NCBI GenBank assembly: GCA_963517005.1
Contig: CAUQDZ010000002.1
Span: 12,198-76,197 of the forward strand
Direction of reading: 5' to 3'
From: an uncultured bacterium
Lineage (GTDB): Bacteria > Patescibacteriota > Gracilibacteria > Absconditabacterales > Absconditicoccaceae
DNA length: 64,000 nucleotides
Each line of letters starts with the position of its first letter. The stretch's first letter is position 1. Below the pieces are notes generated by a model, which saw nothing but the letters and a program-made list of their open reading frames with translations, was not told the origin of the DNA and did not search any database. Shown in pieces: positions 55,235 to 57,872 of the stretch. The translations under genes were made by a program, and so were the position numbers.

Positions 55235-56815
55235 TTAGTCTCCTATATAATCCTGCCATTTTGCAGCTTTCCCTTGGACTTGAAAATATTCGTGTTCAAG
55301 CCATTCTTGCATAAATACTTCATTAGCACAAAGTTTTTGGATTGCGTCATTTGTTTTGAGAAAGTCGACCAAAGTCTGATTTTGATCTATTTTTTCTGTA
55401 TTAAAAAGGTCAATATTTGCTGTTTCTTCGAGCTTTTTGTTGAGAAAATCAAGTCTCTTGTGGCAAATGTCAGTTTTTCTCTCACAGTGTTTAAGGAGAG
55501 AGCTGATGGTGTCTACCTTTTTAACAGGATCTTTTGCGTAAGCGAGTCTCTTGTATCCGATCCAAACAAGCGGATTGTCAAACTTCATATCATCGCCAAG
55601 TTGGTCGAGTTGCATTGCGAGTGATTCGATTTTGACTGCGGTTTCAGTATTTTGATTGTTTTGATATTCGGCTTCCAAAGAGCTCTTTTCTCCATACATT
55701 TGCATATAGTCAGCATATTGTTTGAGGAGGTGGTTGACTTTTTCAGCTACCTGAATTGGGGAAAAGATTACTTCTTGAGGGTGGTTGCTGTGTACTGTTT
55801 TTTCTGAACTTTGGGCTGTAGTTTGTATCATTTTAAGCTCTTGTTGGGATAAAGGTTGTGTGGTAATGATGTTGAGGTGAGGAGAAAGTTGACTTGGAGC
55901 TCAGATTTTGATCTGATGATCAGCATTTTGTACATAGTCAAAAGAAAAATTCTGACCTTCGATTGTGATCGTTCCTTTAGCACGGATGACTTCATTTCCT
56001 TTCCTTTTGATTAAGTTTTGTAATTCATCAATACCAAACTGCTCACTTACTTTGATGCTTTGGGTATGAAAATGAGCATGATGTTCATGTTTTTCTGTTG
56101 GTCTAGCTCCATAGCTCAATCTTGTAGCGTGAACCTGTTTTTTGAGAAGATCTGGGGTAAGATCAGATTTTTCTTCTTTTTTAAGGTCTTCTTTTTGTTC
56201 TTCGGATTTGAGTTCAAAGATAGGAGCTTGAGTATTGCTAGTTTTGATTTGTTGTTTAGCTTCTTCGTTGATGGCGTGATTTTCGCTCAGATGAGTAAGT
56301 CCGATGGTATCTGCGAGTTGTATCTGAGTTTTCGCAGTCTGCTTTTGAGCTTCATTCATGAGAGGAAGTGCTTCTGCATTGACCAAAGTGATCACATGAC
56401 TTCCCATGCCGAGTTCAGTTGCAATTCTTTTGATCTCTTGACCTGTAGCGATTCCTGATGGTTCAATCAGAATTTTCTTTTTTGAGTCCTTTAAACTTTC
56501 CAGAACTTCTTTAAGTGATCCGAGGTCGCTACAGCAGATGCAGCCTTGAGTCAATGCTGTTGGGTTGTATTTCGCTAGTCTCTCTGCATCAATGTTAAAA
56601 TTTCCAATATCGTTAACAATCACTTCAAATGCTTCTCCCTGTTTGCTGAGATATTCGGCAATATTTTGCAAAAGGGTTGTTTTTCCTGCACCAAGAGTTC
56701 AGAGCAAAAGCACAATCTCATTGCTGGTCTTTTTTGTTTGTGTGAAGTGTTTTGGATTCTGAGGTAAGACTCCAAAATTCCTGCTTATCAAAGATTGGTT
56801 TTCTAGTTTTGCCAT
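55235..56815 (-). CDS. CobW/COG0523-family G3E GTPase fused, by TGA read-through, to a ~220-aa C-terminal extension
   Basis: P-loop LLL-[TGA 56699-56701 = G]-TLGAGKTTLL, GCICCS, His-rich HEHHAHFH. TGA 55901-55903 is in frame with track ORF 55235..55831. Confidence 0.65.
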
Positions 56816-56817
56816 TG

Positions 56818-57612
56818 CTATTTCTTGTTAGTACATAAAAGGAGTGAATTTACAATATGATTATTGGGATGAATACTGATTTCCAGATTGAGATAGGTTT
56901 TTATGAGATCAAGATTAATGTTTTGATAGAGGAGTTGACGAAGTCATTCCACACTTCTGATAACTGCAAGTTGGAAGTTTAGTTGAGAACTAAGATGGCT
57001 TAGAATTTTTTTGTCAGTTTCCCCTCAGCAAAACAGGAGTGAGGCTAAAATGATTGCATCATAACAAAGATTACTCGAAAAATTCAAAAAATCTGAATGG
57101 ATGACCTCGATTTGCCTTTGGAGTCAGAGTTTTTCGATTATTTTTTGTGAAGTTTGGACAGCGATTTCGTCTCTCTCCACCAAAACACAATGCATATCAT
57201 ATTTTTGTGCTAAAATAATTGCAGTAAGTGGAAGTGGTCAACTTCCTACAAAAAGGAGCTTTTTGCAAGATTCTAGTTGCGAAACGATTGCATGGTATTC
57301 GAGTTTTGTGAGGTCAGTATAGTTGTTTCGATAAGGGAATTTTTCAAGTTCTTTTTTGATATCTTTACAGTTGAGAAGGCGATTTGCTCGATACTGTTCC
57401 ATTTGATATTCGGCTTGACTACAAATGCTGTGAAGCTCACTTAACTCTTGGCTATTGATAATTTGAGAGTTAAGTTCTCAATTGTTGATCACACTCATTT
57501 CATATAAATCAGAAAAAAACTGATTTACTTCTTCGTTTGGTTTATATGGAGCGAGTTTTTTTGCTTGATCAAGAATGAGTTGTAGTTGTTTTAGAGAATT
57601 GGGAATTAGCAT
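56818..57612 (-). CDS. nicotianamine-synthase-like (NAS family) SAM-dependent transferase
   Basis: Not in the track because it contains 5 TGAs. 265 codons counted. ...FPYRNNYTDLTKLEY... and KKLLFVGS-G-PLPLTAIILA resemble the NAS-family F.YY.NY..L..LE and GSGPLPLT motifs. Confidence 0.6.
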
Positions 57613-57872
57613 TATTTTGATAATTTAGAGTTAAGAAGTATTCTGTCCACATCAGCAATGAGTTTGATGTTCTTTTTTCCATTTGATGAGACTTCTAGAG
57701 GAGATTTTGTGTTTTTGGATGATTTCTTTTGCTTTATGTCCTTGATGGCAGTATTCTTCAATGATTTGCTGTTTGAATTCGGGGCTATAAGTTCCTCTCT
57801 TGCCCTCAATTGTGAAACTAGAGTTACAATCTCAGCAAAAAAACCTCTGTGAATCATATCTTCCGTGGCCAT
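57612..57872 (-). CDS. hypothetical small protein (86 aa), first gene of the NAS-like operon
   Basis: Clean ORF whose TAA overlaps the NAS-like ATG (TAATG). Lys/Ser-rich C-terminal half. Confidence 0.45.
   Translation of the reverse strand: MATEDMIHRGFFAEIVTLVSQLRAREELIAPNSNSKSLKNTAIKDIKQKKSSKNTKSPLEVSSNGKKNIKLIADVDRILLNSKLSK

Follow-up and report, generated by a model that had tools for sequence, protein, structure and literature searches.

The window analysed here, a 64-kb stretch of DNA from an uncultured bacterium assigned to the Absconditicoccaceae (contig CAUQDZ010000002.1, positions 12,198 to 76,197; coordinates below are those of the window), carries a minus-strand operon in which a nicotianamine synthase (NAS)-family enzyme is followed by a COG0523-type GTPase fused to a helical domain of an undescribed family, referred to here as domain X. 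As a variant of NAS-based metal handling the cluster is genuine, recurs in other genomes and had not been described before; at its core is a protein domain that is new. On balance it is probable that the operon represents a pared-down form of a metal-homeostasis module, rare and conserved, of the Candidate Phyla Radiation (CPR, or Patescibacteria) and some other uncultured prokaryotes, in which a chelator made by NAS is coupled via X to a metallochaperone NTPase. A sequence-only reading of the same DNA had proposed a NAS-COG0523 module; the recurrence of this pair holds, but the core of the module is NAS plus X, to which the GTPase is attached via X. The literature searched contained no description of the cluster, of NAS in CPR, of a NAS-COG0523 link or of the function of YibE/F (a membrane protein encoded beside related clusters), in line with the earlier remark that no described NAS-COG0523 module was known in CPR. 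The operon comprises the following genes and domains:

57631..57915, minus strand: 94-aa zinc-ribbon (CxxC...CxxC) and helix-turn-helix protein, IS1 InsA-like, with two in-frame TGA (Gly) codons
56818..57612, minus strand: NAS-family enzyme, 264 aa (S-adenosylmethionine (SAM)-dependent aminocarboxypropyl transferase family, PF03059)
55856..56815, minus strand: COG0523/cobW part of a 526-aa fusion protein (N-terminal two thirds)
55235..55831, minus strand: domain X of the fusion protein, residues 329-526 (~198 aa), with the stop codon; helical, undescribed family

Association of NAS with domain X

The survey of NAS genes, conducted by tblastn and hidden Markov model (HMM) searches, covered 87 NAS loci, to which L088, L089 and L091 were added through homologs of X. 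In about 17 independent loci X adjoins NAS or is fused to it. X comes after NAS in L009-L012, L014, L017, L019, L021-L024 and L087-L089, and in the lineages using genetic code 25 (L001-L008) NAS is followed by a GTPase-X fusion. The arrangement varies from locus to locus, with NAS, GTPase and X encoded as separate genes in L009 and L014, a second GTPase following X in L022 and L087 (NAS, GTPase, X, GTPase), and X placed directly after NAS with no GTPase at seven loci (L010, L011, L012, L017, L021, L023, L024). L019 likewise has X directly after NAS, with a COG0523 gene ~1.6 kb upstream of NAS, and L089 encodes NAS, a cobW-X fusion and an additional standalone X. The fullest set is found in L088, where Fur, NAS, cobW, X and YibE_F form one overlapping operon followed by genes for a CsoR-type repressor and a copper-ATPase, while in L091 YibE_F and Fur are divergent from cobW and a NAS-X fusion.

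COG0523 genes occur within 3.5 kb of NAS only at X-bearing loci, and at none of the ~68 X-less NAS loci. The sequence-only reading had made much depend on the gene pair recurring elsewhere, and it does so in other genomes, in unrelated neighbourhoods and at NAS identities of 30-37%. No X was present in the survey next to the NAS genes of Actinomycetospora, Acidimicrobiales, Alphaproteobacteria or methanogens. Since X accompanies NAS without a GTPase at seven loci, is fused to NAS in five clusters and is tracked by COG0523, the conserved partner of NAS is domain X and not the GTPase, the NTPase going with X. A structural model of one natural fusion, P0116, in which NAS and X are joined by a linker of ~4 residues, reached a predicted local distance difference test score (pLDDT) of 94.1 and a predicted template modelling score (pTM) of 0.88, the latter of which indirectly suggests a fixed NAS-X arrangement. 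The genome-collection scan probably under-samples code-25 genomes, as its patterns and tblastn confirmation assume standard translation.

Metal-insertion-type NTPases of another family also occur near NAS. A CbiA/MinD-type ATPase is encoded directly upstream of NAS in L010 and L017. In a Methanobacterium locus (L069:4257-6218) a gene of the type of MtNAS, the archaeal thermonicotianamine synthase, is followed 391 nt downstream by one for a CbiA/MinD-like ATPase; this is the only X-less NAS locus with a metal-insertion-type NTPase nearby.

Domain X

Within the X domain of the window protein four motifs were located:

55538-55588, minus strand: motif MKFDNPLVWIGYKRLAY
55454-55489, minus strand: motif HCERKTDICHKR
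55286-55315, minus strand: motif FMQEWLEHEY
55256-55267, minus strand: motif KW

Searches of Pfam and NCBIfam returned no match for X. A profile search of a database of 5.8 billion proteins retrieved 22 proteins, all unnamed and free of Pfam domains, and an exhaustive HMM search of 1.84 billion representatives retrieved 188 representative clusters. Among 167 representatives whose architecture was defined, X stands alone in 130, follows a GTPase in 29 and NAS in five, precedes a methyltransferase-fold domain in two and follows an aminotransferase in one. The AlphaFold 2 model of the window domain (pLDDT 88.1, pTM 0.79) is a helical bundle with a small C-terminal hairpin, for which a Foldseek search of the PDB gave no structural relative (best E=1.1, template modelling (TM) score <=0.34) and one of the viral structure library BFVD no meaningful match.

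Across 168 sequences a set of X residues is close to invariant, namely Y93 (98%), K94 (99%), Y98 (96%), H115 (98%), C123 (99%), R126 (100%), E181 (100%), K191 (99%) and W192 (97%), a pattern suggestive of a pocket for a ligand or metal and not of a disulfide. An obligatory cysteine pair or disulfide in the H-C-x6-C motif was considered and ruled out, C116 being only 78% conserved. Three standalone X proteins (L010:8770-9387, L017:3561-3983, L019:8796-9428) end in a conserved Cys/His/Asp-rich tail, SPDHDCE(V/I)(S/N)C(T/S)C, similar to the tails with which metallochaperones bind metal, or else to a modified peptide core; the X domain of the window has no such tail. Two copies of X occur in L021, as tandem genes (7370-8385), and in L089, as a GTPase-X fusion with a standalone X (5278-7549), so that X may act as a dimer or heterodimer. 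A further locus (L092:4472-7755) has a cobW gene followed by a fusion of a class I/II aminotransferase with X, in the neighbourhood of GmrSD- and T5orf172-type genes and with no NAS within 6 kb; to judge from this arrangement, X and COG0523 can also join with another amino-acid-type enzyme.

The NAS-family enzyme

The 264-aa protein belongs to the NAS family, as the sequence-only reading had held, and is no generic methyltransferase. PF03059 matches it with 133.5 bits (cut-off 27.1, E=1.2e-38) over profile positions 10-270 of 276, compared with 24.1 bits for the best generic methyltransferase model, which is under its own cut-off. Its functional elements are as follows:

Within 57391-57417, minus strand: catalytic-type residue E72
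57295-57339, minus strand: motif FPYRNNYTDLTKLEY, containing Y98
57223-57258, minus strand: SAM loop LLFVGSGPLPLT

Residues E72 and Y98 align with E81 and Y107 of MtNAS and are invariant in 35 family members, as are F121 and P128, and the GxGPLPLT SAM loop is likewise invariant, its glycine (residue 125) being encoded by TGA. The catalytic glutamate of CntL is E84, and structure 3FPG is that of the E81Q mutant of MtNAS. The closest solved relative by sequence is MtNAS (3FPE, E=1.5e-11), with CntL only marginal (E~0.009). The fold comparison was made on the NAS domain of P0116, the natural NAS-X fusion from the same clade, and not on the window protein; modelled in this way, the domain superimposes on MtNAS with a TM score of 0.87-0.88 (root-mean-square deviation 2.4-2.6 A, ~265 residues), on CntL with 0.70-0.80 and on ordinary methyltransferases with at most 0.43. 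With P0116 standing in for the window protein, the model accords with the NAS fold of an N-terminal helical domain and a Rossmann-type domain. By sequence, and by fold for its clade, the window enzyme is closer to archaeal thermonicotianamine synthase than to CntL, and it would be expected to make a nicotianamine- or thermonicotianamine-like chelator. The family is small, with 38 matches in the database of 5.8 billion proteins.

Among bacterial enzymes of the NAS family, no role other than that of CntL is known to have been described, and the sequence-only reading had pointed to the opine metallophores as one analogy. A secreted system of the staphylopine or pseudopaline type with the NAS-like enzyme as its CntL is, nevertheless, very improbable. 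The CntL fold is similar, as the TM scores show, and the NCBIfam CntL model gives a partial match (E=5.6e-11), but this match (NF033601) covers residues 55-174 only and scores 42.3 bits against a cut-off of 350, and both sequence and fold are nearer to archaeal MtNAS. Nor are the partners in place: an opine dehydrogenase (CntM), a histidine racemase, a Cnt-type importer and an exporter were found neither in the window nor in any of ~20 related loci, a clustering of the neighbours of 20 loci showed no recurring family of dehydrogenase size, and no Pfam family of CntM or Cnt transporters was met among the called neighbours of L001-L008 and L088-L092 or among the flanking window genes scanned. 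The earlier remark that neither an opine dehydrogenase nor an exporter is adjacent is therefore borne out for the flanking genes scanned, and its analogy with CntL is unsupported, no CntM having been found in any locus.

Genetic code and gene models

Under translation table 11 the region splits into short open reading frames (ORFs) and the operon genes are fragmented. Once TGA is read as a sense codon the summed length of ORFs of at least 100 aa in the window rises from 15,214 aa to 37,831 aa, and each of the 59 genes then called has TAA or TAG as its stop, with 224 TGA codons in frame among them. Five of these fall in NAS (residues 45, 125, 163, 196 and 223). Among 25 standard-code homologs the position of residue 125 is Gly in all, that of residue 163 in 15 and that of residue 223 in 17, and Trp is found at the TGA positions in none of them; the Walker A glycine of the GTPase is likewise encoded by TGA. 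Given the alignment of TGA sites with Gly and never with Trp, the ORF lengths and the usage of stop codons, the code of the window is assigned as code 25 (TGA = Gly), as in Absconditabacteria (SR1) and Gracilibacteria. Only under this code are the 264-aa NAS gene and the 526-aa cobW/COG0523 gene intact. The closest named homolog of the fusion protein is from a 'candidate division SR1 bacterium', and a CPR origin is consistent with this and with code 25. A tRNA scan of the window detected only tRNA-Leu and tRNA-Arg, and none reading UGA. An in-frame TGA at residue 305 of the fusion protein (55901-55903) lies within the CobW_C-like domain, and because relatives carry Gly at this position the reading frame is taken to run on through it.

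Public database homologs from organisms with TGA as Gly (e.g., P0002, P0010, P0041) have often been translated with code 4, which puts Trp at conserved Gly sites, as in 'FIWWWPLPLT' and 'FLWAWKTT'. Profile searches and structure predictions for these lineages are therefore the poorer, and a wrong genetic code or a wrong frame in annotation hides such modules.

The GTPase part of the fusion protein

The sequence-only reading had recognized a CobW/COG0523 GTPase in the third gene. This part of the assignment stands, with 91.3 bits for the cobW family PF02492 (cut-off 20.7), but the 526-aa protein is a fusion whose residues from ~329 to 526 constitute domain X. The motifs by which the two enzymes had been recognized, FPYRNNYTDLTKLEY and LLFVGSGPLPLT in NAS and GAGKTTLL, GCICCS and HEHHAHFH in the GTPase, are all present. 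The GTPase part comprises:

56216-56716, minus strand: cobW-type P-loop NTPase domain, residues 34-200 (PF02492)
56675-56701, minus strand: Walker A, GTLGAGKTT
56528-56545, minus strand: CxCC motif, GCICCS
56447-56470, minus strand: ExSG motif, LIEPSGIA
56285-56302, minus strand: degenerate G4, GLTHLS, replacing (N/T)KxD
56066-56095, minus strand: His-rich segment, EKHEHHAHFH
55856-56065, minus strand: weak CobW_C-like domain, residues ~251-320

The CobW_C score of the window protein (19.8 bits) is under the cut-off of 22, which relatives exceed (P0077, 26.2 bits; L009, 34.4 bits; L019, 43.8 bits). The closest solved structure is that of YjiA (1NIJ, E=3.9e-10), whose G4 sequence TKTD aligns with THLS of the window protein. 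The subfamily of X-fused GTPases as a whole has no (N/T)KxD and carries NDIG in place of ENEFG, whereas the separately encoded GTPases of related loci keep both motifs, with HKTD, TKTD or TKID as G4; Walker A and CxCC are conserved in the X-fused subfamily. The NCBIfam equivalogs of COG0523 all score far under their cut-offs (61 vs 180, 55 vs 361, 45 vs 332 and 39 vs 600 bits).

UreG, HypB and CooC are NTPases that insert metal into client proteins, and by analogy X could be the metal-dependent subunit, catalytic or structural, of a two-component enzyme formed with NAS, the NTPase (COG0523 here, a CbiA/MinD-type ATPase in some relatives) being the maturation factor that inserts metal into X. 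GTPase-X would then unite a chaperone and its client in one protein, and the pathway would not have to end in a metallophore. This is the main rival to the reading preferred here and, though unlikely, deserves serious weight, as NTPase adjacency follows X and not NAS, and X is accompanied by two unrelated families of metal-insertion NTPases, mostly COG0523 and, in L010 and L017, CbiA/MinD-like. The near-invariant His115, Cys123 and Glu181 of X are a plausible metal site, its Arg, Lys and Tyr residues are as expected in an active site, and X is fused to differing enzymes (NAS, a methyltransferase-fold domain, an aminotransferase). A dedicated maturase cannot be obligatory, however, given that 130 of 167 representatives are standalone X and seven NAS-X loci have no GTPase; the limited conservation of C116 in the H-C-x6-C motif and the failure of X to match any known metalloenzyme fold in the PDB search argue in the same direction.

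Metal context and regulation

The reading preferred here, of a chelator coupled via X to a metallochaperone, draws on the neighbourhoods of the relatives. Next to the cluster a regulator of the Fur family (PF01475) is encoded in ten or more loci (L009, L010, L011, L013, L017, L019, L023, L024, L025, L087, L088 and L091), and a YibE/F membrane protein in six or more. The standard-code relatives thus hold a fuller set of five parts, comprising the Fur-family regulator, NAS, COG0523, X and YibE/F. TGCAA..TTGCA palindromes precede the cluster in four independent loci that contain Fur, L088 (1446-1464), L009 (7970-7992), L010 (7035-7087) and L024 (2198-2239), for example AATGCAA-N5-TTGCATT and CATATGCAAC-N3-GTTGCATATG, just upstream of Fur or NAS genes, and are candidate operators of the Fur-family regulator that are unlike classical Fur/Zur boxes. 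The module GTPases contain CxCC and His-rich stretches, and some X proteins Cys/His/Asp-rich tails. The metal-homeostasis reading, first proposed from the window alone, gains independent support from the Fur-family genes and the full L088 operon of the relatives; the window itself contributes no Fur/Zur gene near its operon.

Several observations weigh against this reading. A Fur/Zur gene or operator, YibE/F, a CbiA-like ATPase and the TGCAA..TTGCA palindrome were sought in the 64-kb window and none was found near the operon, so that the suggested search for a Zur or Fur box yielded no recognizable operator, and no transporter was found in the window. Four close relatives of the NAS enzyme have no X and lie in unrelated contexts. 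The Fur-family protein of the relatives is not assignable to Fur, Zur or PerR, and control could therefore be by redox state instead of metal. The fused GTPase may not behave like the characterised zinc metallochaperones, a doubt that arises from the loss of the guanine-specificity motif G4 and from its reaching the cut-off of no COG0523 equivalog. Finally, X is not strictly tied to NAS products, since in L092 an aminotransferase-X fusion sits beside COG0523 in a NAS-free setting.

It is also conceivable, if improbable, that the cluster belongs to a non-metal natural-product or modification pathway, in which the NAS fold transfers or cyclises the aminobutyrate moiety of SAM (as in azetidine-type chemistry, or in aminocarboxypropylation of peptides or proteins) and X serves as scaffold, carrier or substrate, its Cys-rich tails being modified cores. 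SAM-cyclising AZE synthases have been reported in Patescibacteria, X occurs in fusions with three different folds of amino-acid or SAM-type enzymes, some loci have two copies of X, and the tail SPDHDCE(V/I)xCxC is conserved on some X proteins. Most X proteins including that of the window have no tail, however, and the neighbourhoods show no recurring protease or enzyme of peptide maturation, while the repeated presence of Fur-family regulators, of NTPases of the COG0523 and CbiA kinds and of His-rich segments points to metals.

Operon layout, promoter and flanking genes

The three genes of the operon lie on the minus strand within 55235..57915 with no terminator predicted between them, separated by gaps of 18 nt (94-aa gene to NAS) and 2 nt (NAS to the 526-aa gene). 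The operon of three genes described by the sequence-only reading is thus retained, including the 2-nt gap between the TAG stop of NAS (56818-56820) and the ATG of the next gene at 56815, but its first gene was misframed and the genes need code 25. In place of an 86-aa ORF (57612..57872), a wrong-frame artefact with no family match to which the supposed TAATG overlap at 57612 also belongs, the conserved gene is that of 94 aa at 57631..57915. This frame is taken as the true gene because it is better conserved, its identity being 98.9% in L001 and 91.5% in L004 compared with 91.9% and 59.5% for the 86-aa frame. NAS itself retains only 69% protein identity in L004, which argues for strong constraint on the 94-aa gene. 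One further feature lies upstream of the first gene:

57963..57990, minus strand: candidate sigma-70-type promoter (TTGACA 57985-57990, 16-nt spacer, TATAAA 57963-57968)

About 47 nt separate the candidate from the start codon (ATG) of the 94-aa gene downstream, and the two hexamers are conserved in L001 and L004 while the surrounding non-coding sequence diverges. TTGACA-16-TATAAA probably serves as the operon promoter; the consensus promoter scan skipped it, its rule demanding T at position 6 of the -10 hexamer. An RNA scan of the window found no riboswitch or other RNA element.

The 94-aa protein matches HTH_Tnp_1 (PF01527; 38 bits, cut-off 24.1) and the IS1/IS1595 Zn-binding domain NF050000 (37.4 bits, cut-off 28), but of the 199-position IS1 transposase model it covers only positions 1-81 (42.9 bits, cut-off 100). 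The catalytic part of the transposase (InsB) is absent, the next gene being NAS, and the gene is present in single copy in the window and at the same position in L001-L004. With its fixed site, its conservation and no catalytic part, it acts like a resident gene and not a mobile element.

An IS1-type InsA-like gene at the head of the operon might nonetheless suggest that unrelated genes were joined by an insertion-sequence remnant, and weak PADLOC matches, at 40 bits between NAS and mad2 and at 26.7 bits between the GTPase and mad8, might suggest an anti-phage system of the methylation-based MADS type. Either explanation is hardly credible. Distant genomes have the same set of genes, variously ordered and fused; mad2 encodes an N6-DNA methyltransferase, and its match reflects the generic SAM-binding core (121 of 492 positions) as opposed to the full-length NAS match of 133.5 bits; the mad8 match reflects P-loop similarity, and the other six MADS genes are absent. 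Recurrence of the gene set and comparison at the domain level effectively exclude both MADS defence and chance adjacency.

Immediately downstream of the operon lie genes for a RelA/SpoT-family (p)ppGpp synthetase/hydrolase (52769-55012, minus strand) and a membrane protein that carries a double zinc ribbon (52080-52658, minus strand), which are syntenic in L001 and not in L005 and therefore probably outside the module. Code 25 also reveals three giant ORFs on the plus strand, at 58081-63450 (1789 aa), 6655-11139 (1494 aa) and 11178-16430 (1750 aa). The first is divergent from the operon promoter region and conserved in L001 and L004, with no Pfam match recorded in L001, and the 1750-aa ORF has repeated modules resembling surface proteins.

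Proposed mechanism and significance

In the mechanism that we propose, the NAS-type enzyme would add aminocarboxypropyl units from SAM to an amino-acid acceptor, yielding a polyaminocarboxylate chelator, as its family and catalytic residues indicate. X would bind NAS directly, in keeping with the natural fusions and the gene order, and its pocket of His, Cys, Glu, Arg, Lys, Tyr and Trp residues would receive the putative ligand, either the chelator or its complex with a metal (Zn, Ni, Fe or another). The COG0523-type NTPase fused to X, with its CxCC site and His-rich loop, could then couple nucleotide-driven metal transfer to the intracellular chelator pool. In the relatives the adjacent Fur-family repressor would control the module and the YibE/F membrane protein may carry chelator or metal across the membrane; in the lineage of the window, more speculatively, the InsA-like zinc-ribbon/helix-turn-helix protein may have taken over regulation. 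More specifically, X might be a new fold family that combines with NAS into a holoenzyme and serves the COG0523-type NTPase directly as client or adaptor; this proposal is tentative and for the present doubtful.

Nicotianamine-type chelators are central to the metal nutrition of plants and to the virulence of some pathogens, and what archaeal NAS and the bacterial NAS genes without CntM do is not yet settled. For the COG0523 GTPases, which are widespread and linked to zinc starvation, the clients are mostly unknown, and the ultra-small, symbiotic CPR bacteria are without most conventional metal-buffering systems. If the holoenzyme proposal is correct, the module would be the first in which a metallochaperone GTPase is tied by its mechanism to the making or use of a nicotianamine-type chelator, would give the poorly understood COG0523 family a defined bacterial client, and would represent a CPR-specific way to buffer and allocate scarce metal in minimal cells. 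The cluster links NAS and COG0523 physically through a small domain without known relatives that is amenable to study, and as such offers a route to the products of non-opine bacterial NAS, the metal clients of COG0523 and the handling of trace metals in CPR.

Comparison with known systems

With the CntKLM pathways (staphylopine, pseudopaline, yersinopine, bacillopaline) the module shares a NAS-fold aminobutyrate transferase and metal-linked regulation, the known opine systems being under metal-responsive repression and the relatives described here having a Fur-family gene. It differs in having no CntM, CntK, Cnt importer or exporter, and its accessory set consists instead of X, COG0523 and, in the relatives, YibE/F. 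The 94-aa protein shares with IS1 InsA, the N-terminal zinc-finger/helix-turn-helix regulator of transposition, the IS1/IS1595 Zn-binding domain and the transposase-type helix-turn-helix, but unlike IS1 it has no InsB and persists as a single copy at a fixed site upstream of NAS with 91-99% conservation among relatives. The COG0523 GTPases (YjiA, YeiR, ZigA, YciC, Zng1, CobW) have in common with the fusion protein the cobW domain, Walker A, CxCC, a His-rich segment and, at a score under the cut-off in the window protein, a CobW_C-like region, and the relatives' copies adjoin a Fur-family regulator, as do many Zur-regulated COG0523 genes; set against these known proteins, the window GTPase has lost G4, has exchanged ENEFG for NDIG and has gained domain X at its C-terminus.

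Close parallels exist with MtNAS (3FPE, 3FPF, 3FPG, 3FPJ, 3O31) and the plant NAS enzymes (PF03059), which share with the window enzyme the full-length family match, the fold (as modelled for a clade member), the two catalytic residues (Glu, Tyr) and the SAM loop GxGPLPLT, MtNAS also having no opine dehydrogenase partner. The window enzyme is nonetheless only ~25-30% identical to them, is bacterial (CPR) and is encoded in code 25. Unlike MtNAS, it has an obligate-looking partner in X and a linked metallochaperone NTPase; neither X nor a COG0523-type NTPase adjoins the sampled methanogen, actinobacterial or alphaproteobacterial NAS genes. In plant NAS an autoinhibitory C-terminal extension modulates the enzyme (PMC10248798), a NAS core with a C-terminal appendage that may be compared with X on the NAS C-terminus in five clusters. 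No sequence kinship is claimed between the two; X is a folded, conserved domain of ~150-200 aa that is also found alone or on other proteins.

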